Under the pieces are notes generated by a model. It was given only the letters and a program-made list of their open reading frames with translations. It did no database searches and was not told where the DNA came from. Below are positions 794 through 60,231 of a DNA stretch of 64,000 bases, one piece after another. Source of the DNA: Veillonella sp. Lineage in GTDB: Bacteria; Bacillota; Negativicutes; Veillonellales; Veillonellaceae. The stretch's first letter is position 1. The number at the start of each line of letters is the position of its first letter. The stretch is from NCBI GenBank assembly GCA_032480995.1, contig JAWETS010000010.1, positions 25,966-89,965 of the forward strand, in the 5' to 3' direction. A program made the position numbers and the translations under genes.

Positions 794-1282
794 TTATTTT
801 TTTGCATCAGTAGCTAGTTTTTTCAATACTTGATCTGTAATGTCAACACCGCCATATAGTACAGTATCTTTAGTCATAACAACGCTAAGACCCTTAGCAT
901 CACCAACTGCTTTTGCAGCCTCCATAGCTTTATCTTGAACGGATTTAGCAATTTCTTGATCTTTTTTTGCTAGGTTTTGACGCGCTTCTTCAGCGATTTT
1001 TTGTTTAGTAGCATCATCTTGTGCTGCATCAATTTTAGCTTGCGTTTCTTGTTGTAATTGGCTTTGATAGCTCATATATTCTTGAGCTGCAGAGATATAA
1101 ATTGGATTATCTTGAGACAACATACGAGATGTATCAATAACCCCAATAGTACTAGTCCCACTATTACTACTAGGCGAAGCCATTTGCGTATAAGCTAACG
1201 CACCAATACCAACAATAAAAATTGCAGCAATGACGATGGAAAAAATCTTTACATTCGCCTTGTTGTTCATCATTCGCATCAT
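794..1282 (-). CDS. skp: OmpH/Skp family periplasmic chaperone
   Basis: 162 aa with an N-terminal hydrophobic anchor or signal peptide (IFSIVIAAIFIVGIGALA). Contains TIGVIDTSRML plus a Q/E/K/A-rich helical core and a ...GLSVVMTKDTVLYGG... end, which is the Skp pattern. Immediately downstream of bamA. The exact start among MMRMM is uncertain. Confidence 0.75.
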   Translation of the reverse strand: MMRMMNNKANVKIFSIVIAAIFIVGIGALAYTQMASPSSNSGTSTIGVIDTSRMLSQDNPIYISAAQEYMSYQSQLQQETQAKIDAAQDDATKQKIAEEARQNLAKKDQEIAKSVQDKAMEAAKAVGDAKGLSVVMTKDTVLYGGVDITDQVLKKLATDAKK

Positions 1283-3730: not shown

Positions 3731-6700
3731 TTAAAAGCTACGTGTCCAACGACCACCTATATAATTGTTCCCTTTTGATGTATGCCATCCCGTGAACTTA
3801 AGGTTTCGTTTAACAGAATATTCTATACCATATTTATTTTGTTTATTATTAATACCTTGAGAATAAGTCAACATGACTCTCGGTAATACATATTTACCGA
3901 TTTCAATATTATAATTACTTGCCGTATCCCTATTGGTTGGCTCATCGGGATCAATTGACCCTGTTGTAATATTGATGCGGTCTAACCCAAGTGTATTTTG
4001 TAATGCATCTTGTACATAGCCAAAAGCAAACATTTGAAGCCCTGCTGTAGCCACAGCATTCACATCTTCATTTGTCAAAGTACTACTATTTGAATCTGCA
4101 CCGCGGCCGAAGGTCAACATGGAAATGATTTGCTTTCTAGACAATGTAGGATTAGAGGACAATGATAAGTCCATATGATCCACTGTCCCTTTTACGCCAA
4201 GCATAATAGTGTAATTACTTACATTTGTTTCAGCCTCTAATTGTAAGTTTGGTAAATAAGAGCCACCTACGAAATGGGCATTCCCTTTTGTAATATTAAA
4301 TACATGGCTCAAATACTTAAACGTGCCATTTCTAACATCGAATTGACCACTAGCAGTTGGATTTTGTAAGGATCCACCAAAATGAACATCGCCACTGATA
4401 AACATGTTGTATAAGGTGCGATCATATAAACGTACACCTTTACCCGCATGAACAGTAACATCCACCCCCATATCTTTGGTACTTTCACTAGATTGTAAGG
4501 AAAGAGGAATTTTGAATTGAATCTTTTCAAGATTTAAAGTACCAATAAGGGTCGGCAATCCATCTCGGTCAGCAATATAAAGTTCACCATTCAACGGTCC
4601 TCTTACATATTCACTGCGAACCTCTAAATCTTCTAGCTGAACTGCCGCCTTGTAATTAGTAAGAGTATGTCCGGACCAATTTACTTTAGCAGCCAAACCA
4701 GCTGAGCCTTTGCCCATATTAATACGGGATTGGAAATCACCTTGTTGACCAGAGAAAATTAAGTCACCATCAATACCAGTAATTTGATTTTCTACACTTG
4801 CCAATTTCATCGTACCATTACGTACCGATACAGTTCCATATGCTTCAGGCTGATCAATAGTGCCTGTAATGTGAACCGTGCCTTTTAACGGACCTGTTGC
4901 CTCCTTAACACTAGTTGTAAGAAGAGGAATAACAGCCATATCTGCTTCGTTAAAATCAATAGTTACATCCATAGATTTGCTATCATTTGCTGGAATATAC
5001 CCAGACGTAAAGATTGCCGCTAATGGAATCTTACCATAGACACTTAGCTTATACCCACTTTTGGCACCTTGAATTCGTTGAATCTGAATAACTTGATCTT
5101 GCATTGTAGCCAATACAAAACCTTCATCAATACCAACACCATTAAAGGACCCCGACTCTACAGCACCGGATAATTCTACTTTAGGATTCTTAGTTTCCCC
5201 AGTGATATTTACAACGCCAGTCACCCAACCAGTAGCTTGAATATCCTTACCCATAAGTGGCAAGAACGGTACTATATCAACATCCTTTAATGCAACCTGT
5301 AAGTCCGCTTGACCATCAAGATCCATCGTACCGCCTATTGCAATGAGACCTTCATCAACAGGCAGTTTCAAAGTTGTAACTTTGAATTTACGATTAGCAA
5401 GACTTGCATCGATAGTTGCATCACCAACAATCTTTTCATCAATACTTACATCATTAATCTTGCCTGTTACATTAACGCTTGGATTGTAGCGTGTACCTCC
5501 GATTTCAACAGAACCATTTAATTTGCCATCAATGTGTTCATTGGACCGGTCTAGCAAGGTTAGCAAATTCTTTACGCTACCATTAGTAACATCTAATACA
5601 CCAAATAGTTGTCTACTATCATCAAACTTCATACCACCTTTAGCAGTGTAGCGACCACCATCGGCTTCAGCAAAGGTGAAATCTTGCACATTTACAACCG
5701 ATTTATCTGCATAAACACGACCATGAATATCGTTCAATAATTCCCCATTAACTGATAAGGCATCGGATGAAATATAGCCATTGAATTGAGGGTTATCCAC
5801 AGATCCAGTAATTTGTCCTCGACCAGATAGCAAACCATCAACTTTGTAATCCGTATTAATGAGCAATCTGCCCATATCAATTTTTTTGCCTTCAAAATCA
5901 ATATTAATTGCTTCTTTAGATACTGTACCGCCACCTGTGATAGTTGCACCATAACCTTCAATATCAAATCTATAAAGCTCTAATGTATCATTCTGATAGT
6001 TATATTTTGCAAACGCATTGGTCACGAGTTTGCCATAAGCAGAACCATCCCACAAATGAGCACGACCTTCTATAATCGGATTTGCAGCCGTCCCTGTAAT
6101 ATGATTGTCTGTTTCAAACCAACCTGTAATAGGAACATCTGTAACAGTACGAATCACATTTTCAATACGAGCAGCCCGAGCCTTGGCATTTAGATCTAAC
6201 ACATCTGTATTAAGATTATACCAACCATTAACATCATAGCCCCCATCGCCATCACCAATATGTCCATTGGTGATAGTGAGAATATGGTTATCTAGCTTAA
6301 TATCTCCATGGATATTATTGAATCGAGCCCCTTTATAATGTACCTCTTGCCCCCATACAGTGCCCATTACATTTGGATTATCCAATGTACCTTGTATCGC
6401 AAAAGAGGTATTCAAGGTGCCATCAACATCTTGACCAATAATAGGACTTAGTGCGGTCAATGGCAATGCATTACCGGAAATAGTGGCATCTATATTACCA
6501 TTTTGGATATAGCCATATCCGCTTAGCGCCCCATCTCCTATAGTGCCTACAACGGTCATATTTGTACTATTATCAGCATGCGTAAAGTTAGCTTTTGCAG
6601 TATCAACTACAACACCGCGAATGCCTATTTGGCGACCTTCAACAGAGCCTACAACATCTGTAACTTGATTATTTTTTCCTAAGATACGCATCTCACCATC

Positions 6701-8020
6701 GATATTACCTGTAACCGGTGAGATCATATCTTTTGTGAAAGTGCCTAAAGGTAAATTTTGAATCTTTATAGTAGCATCAAAATCCCCTGTATCAACCACA
6801 TATTGGCCCTTAACCTTTGCACTACCTTCGCCTACTGATAGGCGCACATCATCCGTACGAACTAAACCGTTATCATATACAATATCACCTTGTAAACGAT
6901 CAATATAGTAACCATTATAAGAAATACCATCACTAGCAATCGTTGCATCTACACGAGGAGCTACTGTCGTACCACCAATATGTGCACGCCCACCTACAAT
7001 ACCAGAAACACCGACGTCTGTTATCGCCTCTAAATCTACTTTATCGGCCACAACATTAAGATTTAAATACTCTTCATCTTTGCCTAGTGTAACTAAGCCA
7101 TTGATCTTTGTTACTTGATCATTTACCCTCCAAGAACTACGACTAATAACGATTTGATCATTATTAAGCATAATGCGACCCGTGCCATCGGTAATATTAT
7201 AAATTGTATTACCCCGTTTATAAGTGCCTGTTAAACCTTTAAAGCCTACATTACCACTCATAATGTATTTGCCATCTTCACTTTTAAGATTTAAATGTAA
7301 ATCTTGTAACTTACCACTCGTTACAGATAGATCCTTACGAAGTGGAACAAAACTCATAATACCAGCAGTATCAATTTCATCAGCTTGTACAAAGAGATCA
7401 AAATTAGATACATTGTTCATATCAATTTTGCCATTCAAGGTAATTGCGGAACCATCTACATCAGCAGTAAAGGCACCTTTAGACATGCCACTCATATCAA
7501 GCGCCATAGTCCCATCAAGATTTTCTACATTCCTCTTTATTCCATCTTTAGTACGTAGCGCTACGCGACCATCATTAACAGTCACAGCGCCATCAAAAGT
7601 ACCCGACTTATTTGGATCGGATGGTTTTACTAATTTAGTTATACTCCACGACCCATCAGCTAGTTGCCATATATGAAAATCTGGCGCCTCGACGATTACA
7701 CTAGAAATAGCCGTAGCCCCTGATGTGTTGCCACCAATAATCTTCGGTAAAGAAGATAATTTAACTCCTACAGCTACCTCTTGAGCAGTTCCAACTAAAT
7801 GTCCATCTCTATCTTTGATAATCACATCTGTTAGAACAACATCACCATTCCAATTAATTCGGAGAGAATCATAGTCTATAGAACCGTTTATGACATTATT
7901 TACTTGTTCTTTAACCATAGGTGCAATGTAAGTTTGAGCCATAGGATTAATGCTGGCACCAACAATACCAGACAAACCTAAAATCGCTGCACCGATAAGG
8001 AGCCACTTTTTACGGGTCAT
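3731..8020 (-). CDS. tamB: translocation and assembly module protein TamB (AsmA-like, DUF490 C-terminus)
   Basis: About 1430 aa with a single N-terminal TM helix (KKWLLIGAAILGLSGIVGA). A very long repetitive beta-rich body has recurring G-x-I/V-x-L motifs. The C-terminal region ...LSLSSNPTLSRKQIISMLTFGRG...IEIGKYVLPRVMLTYSQG...RWTRSF is typical of TamB/DUF490. Start set at the ATG at 8020, with GGGAG 7 nt upstream; the track start at 8038 is a GTG. Confidence 0.85.
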   Translation of the reverse strand: MTRKKWLLIGAAILGLSGIVGASINPMAQTYIAPMVKEQVNNVINGSIDYDSLRINWNGDVVLTDVIIKDRDGHLVGTAQEVAVGVKLSSLPKIIGGNTSGATAISSVIVEAPDFHIWQLADGSWSITKLVKPSDPNKSGTFDGAVTVNDGRVALRTKDGIKRNVENLDGTMALDMSGMSKGAFTADVDGSAITLNGKIDMNNVSNFDLFVQADEIDTAGIMSFVPLRKDLSVTSGKLQDLHLNLKSEDGKYIMSGNVGFKGLTGTYKRGNTIYNITDGTGRIMLNNDQIVISRSSWRVNDQVTKINGLVTLGKDEEYLNLNVVADKVDLEAITDVGVSGIVGGRAHIGGTTVAPRVDATIASDGISYNGYYIDRLQGDIVYDNGLVRTDDVRLSVGEGSAKVKGQYVVDTGDFDATIKIQNLPLGTFTKDMISPVTGNIDGEMRILGKNNQVTDVVGSVEGRQIGIRGVVVDTAKANFTHADNSTNMTVVGTIGDGALSGYGYIQNGNIDATISGNALPLTALSPIIGQDVDGTLNTSFAIQGTLDNPNVMGTVWGQEVHYKGARFNNIHGDIKLDNHILTITNGHIGDGDGGYDVNGWYNLNTDVLDLNAKARAARIENVIRTVTDVPITGWFETDNHITGTAANPIIEGRAHLWDGSAYGKLVTNAFAKYNYQNDTLELYRFDIEGYGATITGGGTVSKEAINIDFEGKKIDMGRLLINTDYKVDGLLSGRGQITGSVDNPQFNGYISSDALSVNGELLNDIHGRVYADKSVVNVQDFTFAEADGGRYTAKGGMKFDDSRQLFGVLDVTNGSVKNLLTLLDRSNEHIDGKLNGSVEIGGTRYNPSVNVTGKINDVSIDEKIVGDATIDASLANRKFKVTTLKLPVDEGLIAIGGTMDLDGQADLQVALKDVDIVPFLPLMGKDIQATGWVTGVVNITGETKNPKVELSGAVESGSFNGVGIDEGFVLATMQDQVIQIQRIQGAKSGYKLSVYGKIPLAAIFTSGYIPANDSKSMDVTIDFNEADMAVIPLLTTSVKEATGPLKGTVHITGTIDQPEAYGTVSVRNGTMKLASVENQITGIDGDLIFSGQQGDFQSRINMGKGSAGLAAKVNWSGHTLTNYKAAVQLEDLEVRSEYVRGPLNGELYIADRDGLPTLIGTLNLEKIQFKIPLSLQSSESTKDMGVDVTVHAGKGVRLYDRTLYNMFISGDVHFGGSLQNPTASGQFDVRNGTFKYLSHVFNITKGNAHFVGGSYLPNLQLEAETNVSNYTIMLGVKGTVDHMDLSLSSNPTLSRKQIISMLTFGRGADSNSSTLTNEDVNAVATAGLQMFAFGYVQDALQNTLGLDRINITTGSIDPDEPTNRDTASNYNIEIGKYVLPRVMLTYSQGINNKQNKYGIEYSVKRNLKFTGWHTSKGNNYIGGRWTRSF

Positions 8021-8160
8021 AATGATACTCCCATACACATTATGAATAATATAAATATATATACTAATCTTACCACAGACACAGTAATAACTATAGTATT
8101 TTCAGAGTGAATTTTATAAAACCTATCAAGAACACTCATTGTCTATAATGTCCATTACAA

Positions 8161-8189
8161 GAAAAAAGACGACCGAAGTCGTCTTTTTA
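8161..8189 (-). terminator. rho-independent terminator after tolC
   Basis: Minus strand reads AGACGAC-UUCG-GUCGUCU followed by UUUUUUC. It lies 10 nt downstream of the tolC stop. Confidence 0.7.
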
Positions 8190-8198
8190 AAGATCATA

Positions 8199-9659
8199 TT
8201 ATTGATTGCCGCCTAGTTTTGACAATTGTTCAACAGCACCACTATTAGCGATAACTTCAGCACCTTGACCTACAGGTGTAGACAATGGAACGCCTGTTAA
8301 TTGTTCAAGAGCCGCAATGCTAATATTGTAATTGTAAAGAGCTTCTACATAGTTATTACGAGCTGTTGTCAACTTAGTTTCTGCATCAAGTACATCAAGG
8401 TTCGTACCAACACCTGCACGGTAACGAAGCGTAGCAATACGGAAACTTTCTTGACCTTGTGCGACTGCAGTTTGTGTACTTTGGATTGTTTGTTCAGCAG
8501 CTCGTAAATTCAAGTATGCTTTTTGTACAGCTAACAATACAGCATCAACAGTGGCCAAGTTAGCTTCTTTTGCTTGTTCAAGTTGTGCATTTGCTTTTTT
8601 AATAGCATTTTGTGTTGCACCACCATCCCATAAGTTCCAAGTAGCACTAGCACCAACACTCCAGGACTTTGTACTTGTACCAAAGTAACCATCTGGATCA
8701 CCATAGCCACGACCAGCTTTTACAGCAACCGTAGGCAAATAACCCGCCTTAGCAGATTTTACAGCTTCTTCCGCAGATTTTACATCAAGAGCTGATTTAA
8801 CAAGAGCGGAACGATGAAGCATAGCATATGCTTTCGCTTGCTCCAAGGTTACATTATATGGTTTATATTGTAAATCATGCTCTGCTGTAGTAATAGCTGT
8901 TTGTGCAGGGTATGCAATAACTTGATTTAAGTTCGCCTCTGCTAAATTTGCAGCATTTTGCGCTTTTACAAGAGATGTTTGAGAATCATCAAGATTTGTT
9001 TTAGCTGCCAATACATCGGAGCTCGCCACTAAACCAACATTATACTGTGCCTCTACATTAGTTACATGACCTTGATAATCTTTAACAGCTTGTTGTGCTA
9101 CATCTACCATATTACGGCTCATAATCAATGTATAATAACCGTTAAGAGCATCATATTTTGCTTGTTGTAAAGCCTCTTCATAGCTAGCACCAGTACCTTC
9201 ACGAGTATAACGTGCAGAATCAATGCTTGCATCGAGTTGTGGATTGAATACAGGCGCACTAATGGAGAAGTTATGACTACCAGATTTGCCACTACCTGTG
9301 TCACCGCCCGTTTTTTGAGCACTCCAACCATAACTAACACTTGGATTCTTACCAGCTGCTACTTGGCTTACTGCAGATTTAGCAGCTTCATAACCCCATT
9401 TAGTTTGCTTAGCTGTACGATTATTAGCTAATGCTAAATCAACCGTACGGGCTTCGTTTAAAGCTAATGTACGTTCATAGGTTTTACTGTCTAAAACAGA
9501 TTTTTCTGCTAATTGCTTTTGTGTTAATTGAATAGCTTCTTTTTGATATTTGCTTAATTGGTCTCCGTTGTTAACGGATGTAGTTACTACATCAGCCGCG
9601 AATGCACCAGTAGTAACTAAAGAAAGCATTACACCTAAGGAAAGAACCTTTTTATTCAT
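8199..9659 (-). CDS. tolC: TolC-family outer membrane channel (outer membrane efflux protein)
   Basis: Signal peptide MNKKVLSLGVMLSLVTTGAFAA. Two OEP-type repeats with long Q/A/N/L-rich helices are present (...AQQAVKDYQGHVTNVEAQYNVGLVASSDVLAAKTNLDDSQTSL... and ...RIATLRYRAGVGTNLDVLDAETKLTTARNNYVEALYNYNISIAALE...). Start set at the ATG at 9659, with GGAGG 8 nt upstream. Confidence 0.85.
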   Translation of the reverse strand: MNKKVLSLGVMLSLVTTGAFAADVVTTSVNNGDQLSKYQKEAIQLTQKQLAEKSVLDSKTYERTLALNEARTVDLALANNRTAKQTKWGYEAAKSAVSQVAAGKNPSVSYGWSAQKTGGDTGSGKSGSHNFSISAPVFNPQLDASIDSARYTREGTGASYEEALQQAKYDALNGYYTLIMSRNMVDVAQQAVKDYQGHVTNVEAQYNVGLVASSDVLAAKTNLDDSQTSLVKAQNAANLAEANLNQVIAYPAQTAITTAEHDLQYKPYNVTLEQAKAYAMLHRSALVKSALDVKSAEEAVKSAKAGYLPTVAVKAGRGYGDPDGYFGTSTKSWSVGASATWNLWDGGATQNAIKKANAQLEQAKEANLATVDAVLLAVQKAYLNLRAAEQTIQSTQTAVAQGQESFRIATLRYRAGVGTNLDVLDAETKLTTARNNYVEALYNYNISIAALEQLTGVPLSTPVGQGAEVIANSGAVEQLSKLGGNQ

Positions 9660-9701
9660 AATATGTACCTCCATACTCATATAGAGTAAATGTGTTAGTC
9701 A

Positions 9702-10961
9702 TTAGAATACTTGTTTAATACCGAAATAGGTACCTCCATTCGTAGAACTGAACGGTCTGGTCATTTGAATAACGCCATAGGTATCTTTATGCAAACGTAT
9801 ATCACTACGAATACGATATTTACGATGATTAAGGTCATATAGCGCGGCTGATAAGGACACAGGACCACGGAAGTTATAATCCACCCCAAGACCCAATTCA
9901 CTTTCAAAAATACCACCACGCACTAACCATTTAGAACTAATAAATCGACCTGCATTCAGATCAAAAGTAGTATCATCACCCATATTAGAAAGGCCAATTT
10001 CAGCCATTCCTTTATTGTTAAAGGCACGTACTCTACCATTGACACGGAATTCATTATCCGTTGTGTTATACAACAAATCTACAGATGGTTCAATCTTGGT
10101 AGATGACTTTTTTTCAGTCATACCAACCTCTACACTATTTCCATTTACATCCGTTTGGTACGCCTTTCCGCCCATCAGTTTATTGATGCGAGCTGAAATC
10201 TGTGCCGTATTATGTAAAGTCTCCTTAATATTTTCTTGTGCTTTAGGATCTGTTACAGTTGATTCCATGGTACGAGCCATATTATCTACACGATCAGTAG
10301 TTTGTTTTAAATTAGTTAAAATAGCACGCATATCATTGCCTGCATTACCATCAGCATTAAACTGTTGTGCTGCTTGATTTAGCTGAGCCGTTACATCCGC
10401 CATATTTTGTGTAATAGCTACCGCATTATCAGCCATCACAGCTGTAGATTGCAAAGAATATTTAAGTGCACTTTGAGTTGCAGGATCACCAATAATACTA
10501 TTAATAGACTGTAGCATCTTCTCAGTACCATCCATTAATTTTTGTGCACTCTGCATGGCCTTATCCACAGCATCAACGCCTTCACCTTTAACGGAGTCAC
10601 CATCTTGTAAATATACTTTAGACTGTCCTGGTGAAATTTGAATAAATTTATCACCTAAAAAACCATCTGACCCCAAGGAAAAGATTGAGTCACTTGGAAT
10701 CTGCGTTTTTTCATCAAGTTTCATCTTAACCACAACGCCACGCGGTGTAATTTCAATATCAGAAACAGTCCCGATGGCCACGCCGGAAAATTTAACCTGA
10801 TTCCCATTTTTTAGGCCATTTACTTGAGTGAAATCACCTGTAATTGTCATTTGCGGTTTAGCCCAAATATCGATACGGCCTACAAATAGTATGCCTGCAA
10901 TAAATAGAACTATACCTATTATTGTAAAAGCCCCTACCTTGGCCTCCGTCGTCCACTTCAT
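9702..10961 (-). CDS. mlaD: MlaD-like MCE-domain protein with a long helical region and a C-terminal beta-strand-rich extension
   Basis: 419 aa with an N-terminal TM helix (AFTIIGIVLFIAGILFVG). The MCE domain reads ...TGDFTQVNGLKNGNQVKFSGVAIGTVSDIEITPRGVVVKMKLD.... It is followed by about 140 aa of Q/A/N/T-rich helix. The last ~130 aa consist of alternating hydrophobic/polar strands ending YFGIKQVF. The ATG overlaps the mlaF stop (TAATG). Confidence 0.8.
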   Translation of the reverse strand: MKWTTEAKVGAFTIIGIVLFIAGILFVGRIDIWAKPQMTITGDFTQVNGLKNGNQVKFSGVAIGTVSDIEITPRGVVVKMKLDEKTQIPSDSIFSLGSDGFLGDKFIQISPGQSKVYLQDGDSVKGEGVDAVDKAMQSAQKLMDGTEKMLQSINSIIGDPATQSALKYSLQSTAVMADNAVAITQNMADVTAQLNQAAQQFNADGNAGNDMRAILTNLKQTTDRVDNMARTMESTVTDPKAQENIKETLHNTAQISARINKLMGGKAYQTDVNGNSVEVGMTEKKSSTKIEPSVDLLYNTTDNEFRVNGRVRAFNNKGMAEIGLSNMGDDTTFDLNAGRFISSKWLVRGGIFESELGLGVDYNFRGPVSLSAALYDLNHRKYRIRSDIRLHKDTYGVIQMTRPFSSTNGGTYFGIKQVF

Positions 10962-11719
10962 TATATATCTCCCATCGCAGATTCGTTAATCGGCTCTGCT
11001 TCACCATGAATAAATTGTTGTACCTTCTTATTTGTAGAATTCTTAAATTCTATTGTATCAGAAATTTCTACAAAATGCCCCTGATCGAGTAAAGCTATGC
11101 GGTCAGCAACATAAAATGCTGACTGCATATCATGTGTTACCACGATAGAAGTACAACCAAGCCGATTCTGCATCCCCTTAATTAGCATACTAATCGTACC
11201 TGATGTAATAGGATCTAACCCTGATGAAGGTTCATCATAAAGAATTAAACTCGGATCTAGTGCTATAGCACGAGCTAAGCTAACCCGCTTTTTCATACCA
11301 CCAGATAACTCATTAGGCATATAGGACTCATATCCCTTTAAACCAACCCAATCAAGTCTTTCTGCCACAATGCGTTTGATTTCGTCATCCTTTAACTTCG
11401 TATGTTGACGCAAACCAAAAGCTACGTTCTCACCTACCGACATAGAATCAAACAAAGCTGAATATTGGAATACCATCCCCATTTTTCTTCGTACCGTATT
11501 AAATTCATCTTCAGATAATGTAGTTATATCTGTGCCATCTACGATAATCTGCCCTGATGTAGGACGTTGTAAACCTATTAATAAGCGAAGTAATGTACTT
11601 TTACCACTACCACTGCCGCCTAATATAACTAACGTCTCCCCATCATTAATAGTGAGATTAACAGAGTCTAAAATCACACGTGACTCGTAGGCAACTACAA
11701 CATTACGTAGTTCAATCAT
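10961..11719 (-). CDS. mlaF: MlaF-like ABC transporter ATP-binding protein
   Basis: Walker A GGSGSGKST, signature LSGGMKKRV and Walker B LILYDEPSSGLD. Lies between mlaE and mlaD. Confidence 0.9.
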   Translation of the reverse strand: MIELRNVVVAYESRVILDSVNLTINDGETLVILGGSGSGKSTLLRLLIGLQRPTSGQIIVDGTDITTLSEDEFNTVRRKMGMVFQYSALFDSMSVGENVAFGLRQHTKLKDDEIKRIVAERLDWVGLKGYESYMPNELSGGMKKRVSLARAIALDPSLILYDEPSSGLDPITSGTISMLIKGMQNRLGCTSIVVTHDMQSAFYVADRIALLDQGHFVEISDTIEFKNSTNKKVQQFIHGEAEPINESAMGDI

Positions 11720-11740
11720 AAATCCCTCTAAAAATATCCA

Positions 11741-12502
11741 CTAAAATAACAATGTAGATAAAAAGTAATTTAATACAAATACTAGAATAATACTAGTTAC
11801 TACAGAACTAGTAGTGGAAAAACCAACAGCTTCTGCGCCCATTTTAGTTTCCATGCCCTTATAAGCACCTACCAATGCAATGACAGCACCAAACACACTA
11901 GACTTTATAAGTCCTAAGGTGAAATCTGAAATGGTAGAAAACATTTGAATAGAGTCTAAATATGTACTAGGCGCCAAACCCTTGATAACAGTGGCTACAA
12001 AGTAACCACCGGCAATACCGATAACAACACCATAAAATGCCAAAATTGGCACCATAATCATACACGCTACTACACGTGGTACCACGAGGTAACCAACAGG
12101 ATCAACAGCCATAACACGTAGGGCATCAATTTGTTCTGTTACCTTCATTGTACCAATTTCAGCCGTGATAGCTGCGCCAACACGGCCGGCTAATACTACA
12201 CCAACTAAGATAGGACCCAATTCACGGCCCATAGCTACAGCCATAAGGCCACCTACTGTACTTTGAGCACCATAGGTAATTAGTACATCTGTAATCTGTA
12301 AGGTCATAACGGCACCAGCAAAGAGTAGAGTTAAGCTAATAATAGGCAAGGAGTCTACCCCTAAGTGAGCCATCTGTTGAAATACATGCCACAGATTAAT
12401 CATTTTTAATTGTTTTATTGTTTGCCACACTAATAATGTAGCACTACCCATCTGCGATAAGCCGTTTATGACGACTCGACCTATCGATTCTAGCCAACTC
12501 AA
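11741..12502 (-). CDS. mlaE: MlaE-like ABC transporter permease
   Basis: 253 aa polytopic membrane protein with the MlaE/YrbE family pattern (...GVDSLPIISLT...GRELGPILVGVVLAGRVGAAITAEIGTMKVTEQIDALRVMAVDP...). Confidence 0.9.
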   Translation of the reverse strand: MSWLESIGRVVINGLSQMGSATLLVWQTIKQLKMINLWHVFQQMAHLGVDSLPIISLTLLFAGAVMTLQITDVLITYGAQSTVGGLMAVAMGRELGPILVGVVLAGRVGAAITAEIGTMKVTEQIDALRVMAVDPVGYLVVPRVVACMIMVPILAFYGVVIGIAGGYFVATVIKGLAPSTYLDSIQMFSTISDFTLGLIKSSVFGAVIALVGAYKGMETKMGAEAVGFSTTSSVVTSIILVFVLNYFLSTLLF

Positions 12503-12532
12503 CAGTCTATCCCTTTCCCTTACAGTTTCAAC

Positions 12533-14515
12533 TTATTCAGCTATATTTGTTCCACCAGCATTAGCCTCATCTTTTTTATTGGTTTCTTTCGACTCTTTTT
12601 TTGAATCCTTTTTAGACTCAGCTTTATCCGTTTTATCTTTTTTAGATTGATCTTCCAATTCTAACTTGCGTTCCATCTTAATCTGATGTTTCGCTTCTTT
12701 GACACGTTTTGCTAATTCTTTATCCCGATCAGCAGGCTTCATTACATGAATCGTAAATTGACCATCACCTTGCACAATGTACTCAGTATCAACAGCAGTC
12801 TTTTCAGGTTTCTTTTCATCATCCTTACTAGAACTCAAATCTTCTTGACCAGTTTTTTTCTTTACATCCCCTGGCATAGGTTTTGATTCCACATCTTTAA
12901 GCTTAGCCTTTTTAACAGATTGAGAGCCATCTTCATCAACTAAGCTGATACCATCTTCCAAAAATTCTACAACGATTTGATTATTTGTATCTGTCTTTTG
13001 AATTTCATCATAAAGCTCATCAAAATCTTTATGAACTTTCAAACGGCGTAAAATTTCATCTGTTAAATTATATTTCTGTTTTTCCAATACGTATGGCAAT
13101 GGAATCTCGCCACCGCCACGCACCTCTAAGGTATACTTACCAATAGCTTGATCTTCAGGTACCTTAAAGAAAATTTGTTTAATAACCTTTTCACCGCGGA
13201 ACGGCTCTAATGTTACATCTACTACGATAGTATCCCCAGGAGAAACTACAGTAGACGAAGCAGAAGCATCGATAAGCTTTGCTGTTTTCTTATCTTGCGT
13301 TACGTTTGTTTCAACCGAAATATCCGAAATTTCATAGTTGATGAATCGATTGTTCATAAGAATATCAATGACATTATAAAATTCATCAACTGCTTTTTCA
13401 CTAATGGAATCAGAGCTGTAGAACATATTTGTCCGCGTTAATGGCTTATGTTCTTTCCCTTTTGGCGTAATAGTATAAGAAATTGTAGCCGTACCAGAGC
13501 CACTGCGATCCAATGTTTTATTCAACATATTGTATAAGGCTGTAGCTGCTAAAGTTGGTGTCATTTCACCATCTTCAATAACCTTGACGGAACTAGTTCT
13601 ATCACGGCCCATATCAATATCCTTTAAATGGAATCGCAATGGAATACCTGGCGAAATCACGCCTGATACACCTGCAATACCGGCACCTCTATCTTCGGTA
13701 ACAGAACCAATCTCTTTACCCATAGAGCCAAGCTTAAAGGCAGCATTATAGCTTTTTACAACGGTAAAGATACTTGCATTGTGCATAAAATAGTTAGAAG
13801 AACCATGTTTTAAGAATGGATGACCAAAGGCAACAACCTTTTCACCATCTACATGAGTAACAGTACCAATAGCGCCCAATTTAAGGTCACCATCAACTAG
13901 CAAAGCCGCTACCGAGCCACCAGCTTCTAAAGGTTTTGCAATTTCATCACCACTAGCACTTGCGGTGTCATATGTTTCATATTTATATTGTGGTAACTTC
14001 GATTTAAAGTATTCCATTGATGCCGCATCGAAGCCATACGCCATAAGTGGAGTACCTAAAGGAATCAATTGTGTATCATCCCAAGGTTTAGATAAGTTTT
14101 TCTCATATGGTATATTCCATAGTTTGACCATATCCTCAATAGGAGTAATCATACCTATCGTACCATCCGCAAACCCCCAGCCATAAGCAACAGCCCCAAC
14201 GAGTTTACCATTTATATATACAGGGCTACCACTCATACCATGCGCAATGCCACCAGTTTGATCCATAACGGGTCCGGAAAACTTGGCTAAAATAAGATGG
14301 CCAGATGGTCCCTTATCCTTCATGACACCCAGTACCTTTACATCAAAAGTGGAAATAGTATCCCCTACGATTACAGTTTTTGCAATACCTTCCATACCTG
14401 TTGTTACATCATTGACAGGCATAAAATCAATAGCCTGTGCAGTTGTAAGTGAAGTACAGAAGAAAAGCGCCAGTATCGCTTTTCTATACCGACGCCAAGA
14501 ATGAGAAAACTTCAT
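12533..14515 (-). CDS. secreted peptidase S55 (SpoIVB-like) domain protein with a large C-terminal region and a charged tail
   Basis: Signal peptide (ILALFFCTSLTTAQA). The N-terminal serine-protease core contains GGIAHGMSGSPVYINGKLVGAVAYGW, which matches the S55 active-site Ser context GMSGSP. About 400 aa of unassigned sequence follows. The C-terminus is K/E/D/S-rich (...SKKDKTDKAESKKDSKKESKETNKKDE...). Confidence 0.6.
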   Translation of the reverse strand: MKFSHSWRRYRKAILALFFCTSLTTAQAIDFMPVNDVTTGMEGIAKTVIVGDTISTFDVKVLGVMKDKGPSGHLILAKFSGPVMDQTGGIAHGMSGSPVYINGKLVGAVAYGWGFADGTIGMITPIEDMVKLWNIPYEKNLSKPWDDTQLIPLGTPLMAYGFDAASMEYFKSKLPQYKYETYDTASASGDEIAKPLEAGGSVAALLVDGDLKLGAIGTVTHVDGEKVVAFGHPFLKHGSSNYFMHNASIFTVVKSYNAAFKLGSMGKEIGSVTEDRGAGIAGVSGVISPGIPLRFHLKDIDMGRDRTSSVKVIEDGEMTPTLAATALYNMLNKTLDRSGSGTATISYTITPKGKEHKPLTRTNMFYSSDSISEKAVDEFYNVIDILMNNRFINYEISDISVETNVTQDKKTAKLIDASASSTVVSPGDTIVVDVTLEPFRGEKVIKQIFFKVPEDQAIGKYTLEVRGGGEIPLPYVLEKQKYNLTDEILRRLKVHKDFDELYDEIQKTDTNNQIVVEFLEDGISLVDEDGSQSVKKAKLKDVESKPMPGDVKKKTGQEDLSSSKDDEKKPEKTAVDTEYIVQGDGQFTIHVMKPADRDKELAKRVKEAKHQIKMERKLELEDQSKKDKTDKAESKKDSKKESKETNKKDEANAGGTNIAE

Positions 14516-14527
14516 TCCTTCTCTCCT

Positions 14528-14812
14528 TTATTTACTTTCTACAGTGACAACGATTTGATCACGAGAAACGTCTGAACCCACTGTAACATTAACCGCCGTT
14601 ACAGTACCAGTTACAGTAGATTTAGCAGCAGCCATAGGACCAGCCAATGTCTCTACAGTCACCAATGTTTGGCCTTCTGTTACAGAAGTACCAACAGAAA
14701 CTGTAGAAGCAACTTTACCTGTTAATACACTTTGGTATGATACAGGGGCCGCCATTACAGAGCTAACACTTAAAATGCCTAATGCAGCTAAAGCTAACAC
14801 TACTCTTTTCAT
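14528..14812 (-). CDS. small secreted protein with a biotinyl/lipoyl-like hybrid-barrel signature
   Basis: 94 aa with signal peptide MKRVVLALAALGILSVSSVMAAP. The mature part LTGKVASTVSVGTSVTEGQTLVTVETLAGPMAAAKSTVTGTVTAVNVTVGSDVSRDQIVVTV follows the G-x-V...V..G..V..Gq.L...E......i.a...G.V..i.v..Gd.V pattern of lipoyl/biotinyl domains. The canonical E-A-M-K-M hairpin is replaced by ETLAGPMAAAK. RBS AAAGGAGGG lies upstream. Confidence 0.45.
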   Translation of the reverse strand: MKRVVLALAALGILSVSSVMAAPVSYQSVLTGKVASTVSVGTSVTEGQTLVTVETLAGPMAAAKSTVTGTVTAVNVTVGSDVSRDQIVVTVESK

Positions 14813-14850
14813 AACGATCCCTCCTTTTACAAAATTAGTTATGTATTTAT

Positions 14851-14879
14851 AGTATACTAAATTATTAGTAATATTTCAA
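14851..14879 (-). promoter_or_regulatory. candidate sigma-70 promoter for the lipoyl-like / S55 / mlaEFD / tolC operon
   Basis: Minus strand has TTGAAA (14879-14874), a 17-nt spacer, then TATACT (14856-14851). It lies about 40 nt upstream of the ATG at 14812. Confidence 0.4.
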
Positions 14880-14900: not shown

Positions 14901-16241
14901 CTATTTTATGATTACTATATCCTCATAACTCATAGGTGCAGAAGATTTGTGTACATAATCATCATTGATAACTATATCAATGCTACCTTGATTTGATAAT
15001 TCAGCGCCATCAACAACACCTAATTTAGACAATAACTGAGCTCCTTCTTTTTGAGTCACACCTACAGATTGAAGTTCGGATTTATCAACTGTTAGCACAA
15101 CTAAATCATGTTCCTTTGTGGTTCCAATGAAACTACGACCTTTGTTATTAGATTCATCAGCTCCTACATAGCGACCGCCTTTCATCACCATAGTGCCCAC
15201 TTCTAAACTAGCTCCACCGGTAGTACTAACTTGAGCAAGTTCTTCTCTATTTTGAATCGTAATAGGTGTTCCAACTTTTAATTTACGTAAAGCACTTCCA
15301 GATTCGCCATGACCAGACAATACGTATTGGTTTTCCCCAATTTTAGAATTTCCCTTTTGTTTACTAATAACCTTGCCATTAGCTACAGTCACTTCATAAC
15401 CATATTCATTGGTCTTTGTAGAAGGACCATAAGTTGACGTATAAAGGGTCAAGGCATTCTCTTTACGAACCGTATCAACGGAGGTGATTACAAAACTCTC
15501 ATTCTTTGTTTTAGCTTGAAGTAAAGGTTTTTTCTCTTCTATAAAATATCCTCTATTAGGCGTATATCGTAACGTACCACGATTAGAAATACGCTCTAAA
15601 TCAATGGCTCCATCACTCGCCACTGAGTAAGGTCGTTCAAAACTGCCCCCTTTTACCTTTGCTCCAATGATAGCTGTATGAGCTTGAGTAACAGAAGATA
15701 ATGGTTTACCTTCTGGAACATGCGCCACCACCATAGGTGAATCATTATCTACGGTCAATGCAAAGGCTTGAATTTTCCCTTCAGCTACGGTGTTATTAAT
15801 TTTGCTATACGTTACAGATTTATTTACATCTTTTGTAGTCTGTTGCGCATAGCCAGAAAATAAATCCACTACTATACGCGAAGGCTTTTCTAATGCAAAC
15901 TCATGATGTTGTACATCCTTATTCGCTGTTAATGTTACTCGTAAGGCCCCATTAACCTGTTGTAAGCCAATGCCTTTAAGAACTCCCGTTTTTTTATCAT
16001 TTTGTGATATGGGGCCAGTTAAACCATTTGTAGTACCCCCTAAGTTCAATGTAAGAGCATGTGTTTCTTCATTATAGGATTGAGTCCAAGATACAGGCAT
16101 TTCAGATACATCTAAAACAATTCGGCTTGTACCTTCATGATTAGATACGCGCACCCCTGTTAAATTACCGGCCTCAGCATGAGGAACGGTACTACCCAGT
16201 AGACCTAAAACAGCAAAAGTCATATACAGATATCGTTTCAT
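14901..16241 (-). CDS. secreted AMIN-domain protein with a C-terminal region resembling the phosphodiester glycosidase (DUF2233) fold
   Basis: Signal peptide (MTFAVLGLLGSTVPHAEA). The AMIN-like N-terminus reads NLTGVRVSNHEGTSRIVLDVSEMP...ALRVTLTA...EKPSRIVVDLF. The C-terminus ...GRSFIGTTKEHDLVVLTVDKSELQSVGVTQKEGAQLLSKLGVVDGAELSNQGSIDIV... resembles the DUF2233 end, with the usual NLDGGGS motif degenerate. The second domain call is tentative. Confidence 0.5.
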   Translation of the reverse strand: MKRYLYMTFAVLGLLGSTVPHAEAGNLTGVRVSNHEGTSRIVLDVSEMPVSWTQSYNEETHALTLNLGGTTNGLTGPISQNDKKTGVLKGIGLQQVNGALRVTLTANKDVQHHEFALEKPSRIVVDLFSGYAQQTTKDVNKSVTYSKINNTVAEGKIQAFALTVDNDSPMVVAHVPEGKPLSSVTQAHTAIIGAKVKGGSFERPYSVASDGAIDLERISNRGTLRYTPNRGYFIEEKKPLLQAKTKNESFVITSVDTVRKENALTLYTSTYGPSTKTNEYGYEVTVANGKVISKQKGNSKIGENQYVLSGHGESGSALRKLKVGTPITIQNREELAQVSTTGGASLEVGTMVMKGGRYVGADESNNKGRSFIGTTKEHDLVVLTVDKSELQSVGVTQKEGAQLLSKLGVVDGAELSNQGSIDIVINDDYVHKSSAPMSYEDIVIIK

Positions 16242-16468: not shown

Positions 16469-17494
16469 TTATTGTAACTCATCTAATGTATCACGAAGCT
16501 GTGACATTTCATCTAAAGCCTTTGCAACACCTTTAATTACTGCATATCTTGGAGATTCTACAAGGTATGCCGCGATTCCAATAGACCGTGTAATAACACG
16601 GTCTAATCCATCGATGAGCGCGCCACCACCAGTAAGAATGATACCATGATCATTGATAGCGGCCACAAGTTCTGGTGGAGTTTTCTCTAGAATGGACTTA
16701 ACGCCTTCCAAAACATTCATCACTTGTGCTTCTAGAGCACGTTGAATCTCTAAAGAATTCACCGCAACCATCTTTGGTAATCCAGAACTTGCATCTCGTC
16801 CTCGTACCTCAATCGTACGCTCCTTTGCACGACGATCCACAGTCCCTACAGAAATTTTAATTTTCTCTGCCGTTAGCGGACCAATAACGAGGCGCTTCTT
16901 ACGGCGGATATAACGGATAATAGATTCGTTAAAAGAATCTCCACCGATGCGAAGTGATTCACTTACAACCACACCCGTATCACAAAGAACGGCAATATCC
17001 GTAGTGCCACCGCCAACATCGACAACCATCGCCCCTACGTGCTTAGCATCATTGAGACCAGTCCCCATAGCAGCAGCCAATGGCTCTTCAATAAGGACCG
17101 TCTTTTTTGCACCGGTTCTGAGTAAGGCCTCTAAAATGGCGCGTTTCTCTACAGGTGTAATGCCTGATGGCACACATACGATAATACGCGTCTTCATCAA
17201 TCTAGAGGCAGGTACAACGGAGCGAATAAAGTACTTCAACATGAACTCTGTCATATCATAATCTGCAATAACGCCCGCTTGAACTGGACGGATGACGGAA
17301 ATCCCTTTTGGAGTACGACCTACCATAGAACGTGCAGCCTCACCTAAAGCAAGAATATCACCGGTTTTATCATCCCGTGCAATATACGCAGGTTCATCTA
17401 ATACCAAGCCTTTACCCTTTGCAAAAATGAGGATATTTGCAGTCCCTAAATCAATTCCCAAATCGAAGTTTAAAGATCGATTTAAACGACTCAT
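16469..17494 (-). CDS. mreB: rod shape-determining actin homolog MreB/Mbl
   Basis: MSRLNRSLNFDLGIDLGTANILIFAKGKG...IRPVQAGVIADYDMTEFMLKYF...VVDVGGGTTDIAVL...ILTGGGALIDGLD are canonical MreB motifs. Start placed at the ATG at 17494, with GGAG 5 nt upstream. The same frame stays open for another 123 codons up to a GTG at 17863 (see findings). Confidence 0.85.
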   Translation of the reverse strand: MSRLNRSLNFDLGIDLGTANILIFAKGKGLVLDEPAYIARDDKTGDILALGEAARSMVGRTPKGISVIRPVQAGVIADYDMTEFMLKYFIRSVVPASRLMKTRIIVCVPSGITPVEKRAILEALLRTGAKKTVLIEEPLAAAMGTGLNDAKHVGAMVVDVGGGTTDIAVLCDTGVVVSESLRIGGDSFNESIIRYIRRKKRLVIGPLTAEKIKISVGTVDRRAKERTIEVRGRDASSGLPKMVAVNSLEIQRALEAQVMNVLEGVKSILEKTPPELVAAINDHGIILTGGGALIDGLDRVITRSIGIAAYLVESPRYAVIKGVAKALDEMSQLRDTLDELQ

Positions 17495-17834
17495 AAAATC
17501 TCCGACTTGCTCAGGTCGAACTAAACGTTTTAATGTCATGGCTGGCGTTGTTTTAGCAATCGCTACAGTCTCACGACTACGTCGTTCAGCACGGCGCATT
17601 TTTGTAACTTTAATCATGGTCTCGCGCATATTGGAGGCTAAATGATTAGCTTGCTTTGCCACGCCATTTGAAAGCTTAGTGGACTTACGTTTTGTCCTTC
17701 TCAATGGTTTGCGTGTAGTACTCGCTTTCGAATTCTCAACCTTTGCAGCACCTAAGTTCTGTTGCTCGTTGTATAAAGCCGGCCCTTTAGAGCGCCGGCT
17801 TCTTTTCTTTTTATTTTGTTTTGGCTGTGTACTC

Positions 17835-19100
17835 TTATTCGTCAACCCGAACAATATCAGCACCTAACCTTTGCAATTTACCTACAAAATCATCATAACC
17901 TCGGTCAATATGATGTAAACGACCGACTTCTGTTCTACCTTCCGCAGTCAATGCAGCGCATACCAGCGCCGCTCCAGCACGCAGGTCAGTAGCATTCACT
18001 ATAGCCCCGTGTAAGCTTGGCATACCTTCGACAATAGCTTGACGATTATCGATGTCAATATGCGCCCCCATTTTACGAAGTTCAGCAACATGCATAAAAC
18101 GATTTTCAAATACAGTTTCTGTTACTGTACTAGTGCCTTCCGCAATCGTAGTAAGAGCCATGAATTGAGCTTGCATATCTGTTGGGAATCCAGGGTATGG
18201 CAAGGTTTTAATATCGACAGCTTTAATGCCTTTACCACTACTGATAACGCGGATGCCGTCGATTTCTTCCTCTACTGTTACACCAGCTTCCTTTAATTTA
18301 GCCACTACTGGTTTTAGATGTTCTGGCAATGCATTTTCTACGAATACATCACCACCTGCCATAGCAGCAGCAATTAAATATGTACCAGCTTCAATGCGGT
18401 CAGGAATAACTGTATGAATAGCACCGTGTAATTGAGGTACACCTTCAATACGGATCACATTTGTACCAGCTCCGCGAATATTAGCACCCATAGCATTTAA
18501 GAATGTAGCTAAATCAACAATTTCAGGCTCTTCTGCAGCATTTTCGATAATGGTTTTACCTTCCGCCATAGAAGCAGCCATAATTACATTCTCTGTAGCC
18601 CCCACACTTGGGAAATCCAAATAAATTTGAGTCCCTTTAAGTCCTTCCGGAGCATGAGCATATACATAATCTTCAGTAATTTCAATTTTTGCACCTAATG
18701 CTTCAAATGCTTTTAAATGAAGATCAATGGGACGTGCACCGATAGCACATCCACCAGGCATTGAGATTTTAGCCTCCCCTTTACGAGCCAAAAGTGGACC
18801 CATGACAAGGAAGGATGCACGCATTTTACGCACAAGTTCATAAGGAGCTTCCGTAGCAGTCAATGTAGAAGCATCGAAAACAATTTCACCATCTGCATTA
18901 TTACGAGTGATTTTAACCCCCAAAGACTCGATAACTTGGCAAATCGTGCCTACATCTTCTAAATTTGGAATTTCAAGCAATTTACTAGGCGTTGATGCTA
19001 GCAAAGTACCGGCAATAATAGGGAGTACTGCATTTTTGGCACTACTAACACGTACACGTCCTTCCAATCGATTGCCACCTTGAATGATTAACTTTTCCAA
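17835..19100 (-). CDS. murA: UDP-N-acetylglucosamine 1-carboxyvinyltransferase
   Basis: 421 aa. [31 protein letters not shown]... with active-site loop [14 protein letters not shown]. Confidence 0.95.
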
Positions 19101-40013: not shown

Positions 40014-40829
40014 TCATAACTCATTTAAATTCATCTCATCCAAATTGAGTGGGAACAAATCTTTTCCTTCCATCGCTTGAGGAGATTTTTCTAAATATTG
40101 TTTACGCATGGACCATAAAATATCCAAATCTGTAGGATCCAATTTTGATAATGCATATATCATAGTAAAGTCAGAACCATAGTGCCCACGTAAGCTATCA
40201 GGTACACCCTTAGAGCCTTCACCACTAATGCGGTTATTAAAGAACCCTTGGATACGACGATTATCTAAATCTATAATAATAAAACCTGATCCATCATACA
40301 CATATAATGTATGATTAACACGTTTTAATGCACGTACTGTATTCGTAATAAAATACTGGTCCTTCAAATCAATGAGGGACGACTCATAACCAGAATGGTA
40401 AAAGTCACCATAATAATGGGCCCCTCCATCAGTAGACTCCAACAAGCCTTTAAATTCTTTTTGCTCTTCAGCACTGAAATCGGATAAAGATTTTAGCTTT
40501 GTTATATTCCGTAAACCTCGTTGGTAATCATCCGATTTAGTTGGCTCTATATGTTGCCCCCTAAAGGTTATTGGCATTAAACGAAGTGCATTATCAGATA
40601 AATTATAAATCCCTAGTCCTTCATAACCTAAGAAATACACTTGTGATCCACTAGTCTTCATAGCTAATATTCGTTTTGAAATAATGGCATCACTAGAATT
40701 AACCAGTGTATGCGCTTCTGGATCAATACGTACTGTTTTACTATCATAATTTGCTCCTACAGCAAGCCAGTAAGATATCCCCATTATAATAAGTGCCAGT
40801 ACAAATAATCCAATACGTTTTATATTCAT
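40014..40829 (-). CDS. hypothetical membrane-anchored protein
   Basis: 271 aa ORF with one N-terminal TM helix (IGLFVLALIIMGISYWLAV). No motif was recognised. Coding is supported only by ORF length and co-orientation. Confidence 0.5.
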   Translation of the reverse strand: MNIKRIGLFVLALIIMGISYWLAVGANYDSKTVRIDPEAHTLVNSSDAIISKRILAMKTSGSQVYFLGYEGLGIYNLSDNALRLMPITFRGQHIEPTKSDDYQRGLRNITKLKSLSDFSAEEQKEFKGLLESTDGGAHYYGDFYHSGYESSLIDLKDQYFITNTVRALKRVNHTLYVYDGSGFIIIDLDNRRIQGFFNNRISGEGSKGVPDSLRGHYGSDFTMIYALSKLDPTDLDILWSMRKQYLEKSPQAMEGKDLFPLNLDEMNLNEL

Positions 40830-60112: not shown

Positions 60113-60231
60113 ACTATCCTCTATGGTAAATCTACTTAAATATATAAAATCAAACAAATTTAAATCCCTATAAATAGGCCTAAAAAGTCCAAACGAATCT
60201 AAATTTATCAATATTATAATCATCTTACCAC

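Follow-up and report, generated by a model that had tools for sequence, protein, structure and literature searches.

The DNA considered here is a 64-kb window (the whole stretch analysed, 64,000 nucleotides) from Veillonella sp., GenBank assembly GCA_032480995.1, contig JAWETS010000010.1, positions 25,966 to 89,965. Its subject is a block of six genes in which an Mla-type lipid transporter (mlaEFD) is found together with a TolC-family channel, an S55-like protein and a small secreted lipoyl-like protein, called lip94 below. The stretch is from Veillonella parvula and corresponds to the outer-membrane (OM) biogenesis cluster of that species; its S55-like protein shows 100% identity to V. parvula genomes. 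Pfam was searched with all 53 open reading frames (ORFs) that reach 70 aa or more. On the minus strand the genes follow in the order murA, mreB-like, AMIN/NAGPA, lip94, S55-like, mlaE, mlaF, mlaD, tolC, tamB, bamA and skp (Table 1), and the successive gaps between the six genes from lip94 to tolC are 12, 30, 21, -1 and 21 nt. It should be noted here that 50 of the 53 ORFs lie on the minus strand, so that a shared direction is uninformative. A preliminary description of this DNA had reported the six genes with these gaps, a TTGAAA-17-TATACT promoter in front of them, a first convincing terminator only after tolC and no MlaA, MlaB or MlaC gene in the 64 kb. The ORF coordinates confirm the layout, and each of the six genes keeps its annotation; the promoter, the terminator and the missing genes were likewise borne out.

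Table 1. Features of the lip94-tolC block and of its surroundings (window coordinates)
Feature	Position	Strand	Basis and remarks
murA	17835-19100	-	Pfam; upstream context conserved with S55
MreB-like protein, basic N-terminal extension	16469-17863	-	Pfam; upstream context conserved with S55
AMIN+NAGPA protein, secreted	14901-16241	-	Pfam; upstream context conserved with S55
Putative sigma-70-like promoter TTGAAA-17-TATACT	14851..14879	-	scan match 10/12; predicted function
lip94, secreted 94-aa lipoyl-like protein	14528..14812	-	Pfam Biotin_lipoyl; orthologue of gene upstream of Vpar_0521
S55-like (SpoIVB-like) secreted multidomain protein, 660 aa	12533..14515	-	Pfam Peptidase_S55; Vpar_0521 orthologue
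mlaE, ABC permease, 253 aa	11741..12502	-	Pfam MlaE E 9e-77
mlaF, ABC ATPase, 252 aa	10961..11719	-	Pfam ABC_tran
mlaD, long trans-envelope form, 419 aa	9702..10961	-	Pfam MlaD/MCE, residues 39-112 only
tolC-family OM factor, 493 aa	8199..9680	-	two OEP repeats; Vpar_0525 orthologue
Intrinsic terminator after tolC, AAAAAGACGAC-TTCG-GTCGTCTTTTT + T-run	8163..8188	-	free energy (dG) -13.8 kcal/mol, z -3.5
tamB, next cluster gene	3731..8038	-	Pfam TamB E 9e-44; probable ATG start 8020
bamA	1389-3554	-	Pfam Omp85 with POTRA; downstream cluster end
skp/ompH	794-1282	-	Pfam OmpH; downstream cluster end

The 12-nt gap between lip94 and the S55-like gene contains the S55 ribosome-binding site, GGGAAAGGGA stands before the TTG start of mlaE, and the stop codon of mlaF shares 1 nt with the start of mlaD. 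In tolC the third ATG (9659) carries a GGAGG ribosome-binding site, and the gap between mlaD and tolC is therefore probably 42 nt. Taken by itself the promoter site in front of lip94 says little, as promoter-like matches are no more frequent than chance in this AT-rich region. Both of its hexamers are, however, kept in position, with a diverged spacer, in the 10 Veillonella species sampled, and at the corresponding place before lip94 a -10 box (TATAAT/TATACT), in most cases TG-extended, is conserved in more distant species. The hairpin after tolC is strong. Its position is kept, with compensatory changes in the stem, in V. parvula, V. rogosae, V. atypica, V. tobetsuensis, V. caviae and others, and it is absent in divergent species, where the gap between tolC and tamB is 2-58 nt. 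Terminator-like matches within the six-gene block are short intragenic stems. On these signals the six genes are probably co-transcribed in V. parvula, from the lip94 promoter to the post-tolC terminator. The transcript may begin further upstream, since no terminator was found between the AMIN/NAGPA gene and lip94.

It could also be that the six genes do not form one transcript even in V. parvula, that internal promoters within the S55 or mla coding regions drive mlaEFD-tolC and that the tight spacing reflects genome compaction. Promoter-like hexamer pairs do occur inside the block (e.g. 13401-13373, 12531-12504 and 10989-10960), and there are related species in which terminators clearly divide lip94-S55 from mlaEFD. 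However, the AT-rich region holds 41 promoter-like matches where shuffled sequences give an expectation of 40.2. The internal sites are at chance number, and they were rejected as evidence for real promoters. In addition, V. parvula-like species have no terminator hairpin in the 30-nt gap between S55 and mlaE, so that read-through from the lip94 promoter is to be expected. Separate transcription in V. parvula appears rather unlikely.

The order of the six genes was followed in the best 80 genome loci, all of them from Veillonella/Veillonellaceae; the deeper synteny was instead traced in further loci, taken from Megasphaera and other contigs and from a set of 80 diverse metagenome loci for which a distant S55 homologue had served as seed. 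All loci were annotated by phmmer and jackhmmer. Within Veillonella the six-gene order is kept in 68 of the 69 informative loci, and tamB follows tolC in 68 of 68. The sole exception is V. magna, in which a WYL-regulator island of at least 10 kb lies directly after S55. In V. parvula-like species the S55-mlaE gap ranges from -4 to 68 nt (at most 36 nt in all but one) and most have a terminator after tolC. In divergent Veillonella (the V. seminalis/V. ratti group and others) strong terminators with dG of -15 to -21 are found in an S55-mlaE gap of 150-330 nt, and the 2-58 nt that lie between tolC and tamB hold no terminator. The boundaries of the units shift inside the genus, as can be observed by setting loci L060, L063, L066, L076 and L077 against L001, L016, L041, L046 and L048. 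The insert of V. magna DSM 19857 (L061:11911-20000) encodes a WYL/WCX regulator, several family-less genes and zinc-ribbon proteins, displaces mlaEFD-tolC and resembles a mobile or defence island.

Outside Veillonella the same junction is again the loosest one of the block. The median gap between S55 and mlaE is about 110 nt there, and terminator hairpins were found at this junction in five loci, two of them from Megasphaera. In most of the loci the other gaps are short: -4 to 20 nt for lip94-S55, -4 to 24 nt within mlaE-mlaF-mlaD and -4 to 96 nt for mlaD-tolC. The five loci with a hairpin belong to class A, which comprises about 29 loci with S55, mlaEFD, tolC and tamB. In the nine loci of class B, one of them from a Limnochordia genome, the gene right after S55 is tamB and/or bamA-skp follows, and neither mla nor tolC was found within 10 kb of S55. 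This pattern agrees with the literature, according to which mla is missing from Halanaerobiales and is not syntenic with tolC or tamB in Limnochordia (PMC10665443). Three loci of an uncultured Terrabacteria lineage carry a barrel-sandwich-hybrid (BSH) protein, S55 in one or two copies, TamB, a sigma factor and BamA, with no mla or tolC, and their small proteins are homologous to lip94 with an hhalign probability of 98-99%. lip94 itself was found upstream of S55 in about two thirds of the class A loci and, within Veillonella, in 77 loci out of 80. A third group, class C, comprises about 45 loci of high-GC soil bacteria in which S55 has none of the cluster neighbours; Reg_prop beta-propeller and VWA genes are found instead. 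The S55-like family as a whole is large, with 6120 representatives at 50% clustering.

Some of these loci have features of their own. In two of the Terrabacteria loci (L120:7537-11740 and L167:8511-12635) two tandem S55-like paralogues lie behind the lipoyl-like gene, and next come tamB, a gene of the sigma-70 family and bamA. On the soil contigs L133, L140, L141 and L153 the S55 homologue occupies about 10000-11750, and the next gene, at about 11800-14100, encodes a protein of about 735-770 aa; in the three that were scanned (L133, L140 and L153) this protein is a beta-propeller (Reg_prop/WD40-like). In L133 and L153 a VWA-domain gene precedes the S55 homologue on the opposite strand. The family thus recurs in a second type of gene neighbourhood.

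From the comparative loci, three partnerships are conserved: lip94 goes with S55, S55 with tamB/bamA (as well as with the upstream mreB-like and NAGPA genes), and mlaEFD with tolC. Partnerships of lip94 or S55 with Mla or TolC are not among them. The preliminary description had placed the six genes in one operon; across lineages the set does not hold together, and the loci split into lip94-S55 and mlaEFD-tolC. Its more general suggestion, of a shared envelope-homeostasis gene set, is correct and corresponds to the already published conserved OM-biogenesis cluster of diderm Firmicutes (PMC5007114, PMC5491611, PMC10665443). It is thus highly likely that the block consists of two evolutionarily separable modules, lip94-S55 and mlaEFD-tolC, placed within this known cluster. 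In relatives the two modules have terminators of their own or are physically apart, and the shared transcript of V. parvula would then probably be a fusion specific to its lineage.

The mlaEFD genes make up an MlaFED core, with a PF02405 permease, an ABC ATPase and a membrane-anchored MCE protein. MlaE scores 247.9 bits with the NCBIfam MlaE-family subfamily model (cut-off 212.2). MlaF, encoded next to mlaE, has an ABC_tran match with E 4e-36, and its best NCBIfam match is MlaF with E 3e-66, below the equivalog cut-off. MlaD has an N-terminal transmembrane (TM) helix and an MCE domain (PF02470, E 4e-19), and the periodicity of its sequence is helical over aa 131-260 and beta over aa 290-419. 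A C-terminal beta-signal, Y-x-G-[IVL]-x-x-x-[FY], is kept in 20 of 20 homologues, and the protein of the window ends in ...YFGIKQVF. MlaD is accordingly predicted to consist of a TM helix, an MCE domain, a helical needle of about 130-150 aa and a C-terminal OM beta-barrel; at the level of sequence it has the make-up of a long trans-envelope MlaD, in which a helical extension is followed by a barrel with an aromatic beta-signal. Among the 53 ORFs the Pfam scan gave no match to MlaA (PF04333), MlaC (PF05494) or STAS/MlaB, and the six-component Mla system of proteobacteria (MlaA-F) is not found in the window.

This part of the locus, both the mlaEFD-tolC-tamB arrangement and the absence of MlaA/B/C, is already known from the literature. 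In V. parvula mlaEFD directly precedes tolC and tamB, and all Negativicutes keep this order (Grasekamp et al. 2023, Nat Commun, PMC10665443). MlaA and MlaC are absent genome-wide in V. parvula and MlaABC are absent from diderm Terrabacteria (PMC10665443); MlaB has been reported absent in Acetonema longum (PMC13018214). The characterised MlaD of V. parvula has 419 aa, the same length as that of the window, with a TM helix, an MCE domain, a helical region of about 150 residues and a 10-stranded C-terminal barrel (PMC10665443). The isolated barrel was shown experimentally to fractionate with the OM in V. parvula, and long, barrel-bearing MlaD proteins are widespread in diderm Terrabacteria (PMC10665443). 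The system of Grasekamp et al. and the one described here agree in species, genes, gene order, MlaD architecture and lack of MlaA/B/C, and nothing differs in the mla-tolC part; the paper omits lip94, the S55-like gene and the transcription signals. The flagged arrangement is a textbook example of the ancestral "bridge" Mla, and finding it again adds nothing.

Set against the MlaFEDB-MlaC-MlaA system of E. coli, the locus shares the MlaE permease, the MlaF ATPase and the MCE-domain MlaD of an inner-membrane lipid ABC transporter, but is without the STAS protein MlaB, the periplasmic MlaC and the lipoprotein MlaA. MlaD of E. coli has only 183 aa, and the 419-aa protein bridges the periplasm itself. 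MlaA, MlaB and MlaC are unnecessary here, as MlaD reaches the OM by means of its own barrel, which was established experimentally for this species (PMC10665443). With PqiB, LetB and Mce1 the protein shares an MCE ring and a long helical needle across the periplasm; it differs from them in having a single MCE domain and in an OM end that is a covalently attached beta-barrel, not a separate lipoprotein such as PqiC.

The channel gene next to it encodes a regular TolC-family OM factor, with two stretches of OEP (PF02321, E 2e-62), a signal peptide and the N-terminal sequence MNKKVLSLGVMLSLVTTGAFA; its best NCBIfam match is the TolC family. TolC channels normally dock to inner-membrane pumps through adaptors which contain a lipoyl domain. 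No adaptor of the HlyD/MFP family was matched among the 53 window ORFs, and a tripartite pump is not encoded as a set in the window. Vpar_0525 (TolC) and Vpar_0526 (TamB) are among the proteins reported from the V. parvula OM proteome (Poppleton et al. 2017, PMC5491611), and RND and ABC pumps are encoded elsewhere in this organism (PMC5491611). The tolC gene lies directly after mlaD in 68 of the 69 informative Veillonella loci and in all 19 informative loci outside Veillonella, and the two overlap in several. This adjacency, invariable in Negativicutes, is left unexplained by the literature.

TolC could, along the lines of the preliminary description, be imagined as a dedicated OM partner of the trans-envelope MlaD, the hexameric needle cooperating with the TolC trimer, or docking to it, as a conduit or extraction site for phospholipid. 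Such a link would fit the place of tolC after mlaD in every informative Negativicutes-type locus (19/19 in metagenomes, with gaps of -4 to 96 nt in most loci), and the barrel of MlaD is too narrow for a phospholipid, the OM step being left unresolved in the published discussion (PMC10665443). However, MlaD has an OM beta-barrel and a beta-signal of its own, and the isolated barrel has been localised to the OM experimentally (PMC10665443). Long MlaD proteins with a barrel are widespread in diderm Terrabacteria, and Limnochordia mla is not syntenic with tolC (PMC10665443). The tip of the MlaD needle is not free, since the chain runs on into the barrel, the block encodes no adaptor with an alpha-hairpin, and the RND and ABC pumps whose genes lie elsewhere offer TolC a default role. 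A dedicated TolC-MlaD link is, on balance, very improbable. The wider assembly of TolC, the lipoyl-like protein and Mla that the preliminary description had offered is likewise unsupported: MlaD has its own OM anchor, lip94 is without an alpha-hairpin, the modules are separable and S55 is found beside tamB/bamA without mla or tolC.

The under-studied part of the cluster is the lip94-S55 pair, which accompanies tamB and bamA in two or more Terrabacteria lineages that are distant from each other. lip94 matches Pfam Biotin_lipoyl with 27.5 bits (cut-off 22.1), and a profile search of the PDB gave biotinyl domains (BCCP, pyruvate carboxylase) with E of about 1e-6 and weaker matches to MacA (8e-5) and EmrA. 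It has a Sec-type signal peptide ending in SVMA|AP, leaving about 73 mature residues, and appears to be a bare single hybrid motif of the biotinyl/lipoyl-like BSH type. Its hairpin tip, TLAGPMAAAKS, has no modifiable Lys (MKM/DKA), the nearby K is R in most homologues (AARA), and there is no alpha-hairpin insertion at the tip. A word-indexed search for homologues gave 42 close Veillonella relatives only; the distant ones were found by jackhmmer on the fetched loci.

Two roles can be set aside for lip94. That of a lipoylated or biotinylated carrier was rejected in view of the missing target Lys and of secretion, and that of a mini-adaptor for TolC in view of the missing alpha-hairpin. With the MFP adaptors (AcrA, MacA, EmrA, HlyD) it shares the lipoyl/BSH fold and the weak profile matches to MacA and EmrA, but it is the lipoyl-like domain alone, without alpha-hairpin, beta-barrel, membrane-proximal domain or membrane anchor.

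In the S55-like protein the Peptidase_S55 match covers profile positions 108-209 of 210 and residues 27-129, that is, the Ser-bearing barrel, right after the signal peptide. When the whole AlphaFold2 (AF2) model (pLDDT 86.8, pTM 0.81) was compared by Foldseek, only the N-terminal 113 residues or so matched, to SpoIVB 9lnf (root-mean-square deviation, rmsd, 2.9; 33% identity) and to HtrA-type proteases. S95 aligns with Ser378 of SpoIVB and the GMSG motif is present. S95, H232 and D275-R276 are invariant in 60 diverse S55-like homologues. In SpoIVB the catalytic His236 precedes the Ser in the sequence (PMC12502668); here the invariant H232 and D275 lie downstream of S95. A fragment model of aa 140-316 (pLDDT 90.4) gave mostly clan-PA (chymotrypsin-fold) proteases as top Foldseek matches, which are weak (E 0.14-1, rmsd 7-9 Å), and the His-bearing domain (aa 140-300) gave no match at all by phmmer against PDB or in Pfam at E up to 10. 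A circularly permuted Ser/His/Asp protease domain is at most hinted at.

The protein cannot be taken as a SpoIVB orthologue. It scores 42 bits with the NCBIfam SpoIVB equivalog TIGR02860, for which the cut-off is 305, and no PDZ domain was matched in the Pfam scan. The likeness to SpoIVB (9lnf) is confined to about 110 N-terminal residues, which match the Ser378 barrel including the GMSG(S/A)P motif. The differences are the missing PDZ domain, the position of H232 after the Ser and not before it, about 400 extra residues with beta-rich and alpha/beta domains and a Lys/Glu-rich C-terminal helix, and the occurrence in a non-sporulating organism. The C-terminal part deserves mention for itself: aa 594-660 (window 12533-12720, minus strand) comprise the Lys/Glu-rich helix at aa 594-636 and a disordered tail, and this region varies greatly between species in length and sequence; it has been called DUF1090/COG3064 (PMC5491611). 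A further disordered stretch of low confidence, aa 530-567, precedes the last beta-hairpin.

Published data place this protein at the OM. Vpar_0521 was found in the OM proteome and singled out as conserved in diderm Firmicutes with an OM-related function unknown (PMC5491611). The S55 protein of A. longum, F7NM31, is one of only two proteins co-eluting with BamA (PMC13018214). The A. longum accessions are consecutive, with F7NM27 for TolC, F7NM28 for MlaD and F7NM31 for S55 (PMC13018214), and it is from this numbering that an adjacency of the genes would follow. An analogy with DegP and BepA in BAM-linked quality control of OM proteins can be proposed, as a secreted protease-like protein is encoded beside bamA, tamB and skp and co-elutes with BamA in A. 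longum. The likeness is one of gene context and co-elution; the domain architecture is unrelated.

Taken together, MlaEF is the inner-membrane ABC engine, and MlaD, a hexameric MCE protein, reaches the OM and is anchored in it by its helical needle and C-terminal barrel. TolC is a canonical OM factor and would most likely be a co-regulated envelope component serving efflux pumps encoded elsewhere. lip94 is coupled in translation to a SpoIVB-like protein which is periplasmic, associated with the OM and conserved in its Ser, His and Asp; across diderm Terrabacteria this pair is anchored beside tamB/bamA. It would most likely be a protease, or a protease with a partner, in the biogenesis of OM proteins or of the envelope and not in lipid transport. 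We tentatively go one step further, to a proposal which is possible but at present the less likely outcome: lip94-S55 may be an ancient two-protein periplasmic module that works with TamB/BamA in OM biogenesis or quality control throughout diderm Terrabacteria, S55 may be a permuted protease, and the placement upstream of mla in Negativicutes may be secondary, brought about by the insertion of mla-tolC between S55 and tamB.

That lip94 and the S55-like protein are accessory Mla subunits standing in for MlaA/B/C is extremely improbable: in V. parvula, with gaps of 12 and 30 nt, they apparently belong to one transcription unit together with mlaEFD, and 68 of 69 informative Veillonella loci as well as about 29 metagenome or contig loci keep the order, but S55-mlaE is the loosest junction of the block with terminator hairpins in several lineages and an insertion of at least 10 kb in V. 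magna, S55 precedes tamB/bamA without mla in nine loci (none within 10 kb) and occurs with lip94 without mla in three, Halanaerobiales have no mla altogether (PMC10665443), and many of the 6120 S55-like representatives are in unrelated contexts in high-GC soil bacteria.

Several points weigh against the picture of two modules joined in one V. parvula transcript, with S55 as an envelope protease and TolC as a bystander. The case for a single transcript consists of the short gaps together with a single terminator and a single promoter-like site that is conserved; transcription may run on into the block from the AMIN/NAGPA gene upstream, and internal promoters in the block are conceivable. For TolC, the role of a mere co-located component is the default, and the strict mlaD-tolC adjacency also fits a dedicated link. 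The protease activity of S55 is putative, its His domain being unrecognisable by sequence and only weakly protease-like in the modelled structure. The co-elution with BamA in A. longum comes from 3 peptides.

Diderm Firmicutes are without known BAM and TAM accessory proteins, and a conserved lip94-S55 partner would therefore be useful to know. If the proposal for lip94-S55 is true, the pair would be a previously undescribed accessory factor in lineages without BamBCDE and TamA.

The genes upstream of the block also belong to the conserved surroundings of S55: Megasphaera and most of the metagenome loci of classes A and B have the murA, MreB-like and AMIN-NAGPA neighbours upstream of S55 too. 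In the AMIN+NAGPA protein, AMIN and AMIN-like domains are joined to a NAGPA (phosphodiester glycosidase) domain, and a NAGPA homologue directly adjoins S55 in many class A and class B loci. The longest ORF of the MreB-like gene has a Lys/Arg-rich N-terminal extension of about 130 residues and shares 29 nt with the 3' end of murA; almost every locus of classes A and B has an MreB-like gene upstream of S55.

Elsewhere in the window, two minus-strand ORFs, 40014-40829 (271 aa) and 55070-56239 (389 aa), matched no Pfam family even at E 0.01. A class A-type gene of the beta-lactamase family (Beta-lactamase2; 48783-49601, minus strand) lies inside an oligopeptide ABC transporter operon, between the gene for the solute-binding protein and those for the ATPases. 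Further along, 56525-60223 (minus strand) encodes a CydDC-like fused double ABC exporter of 1232 aa with two ABC_membrane + ABC_tran halves, which adjoins the genes for cytochrome bd oxidase subunits I and II (60312-62710, minus strand) in this strict anaerobe.

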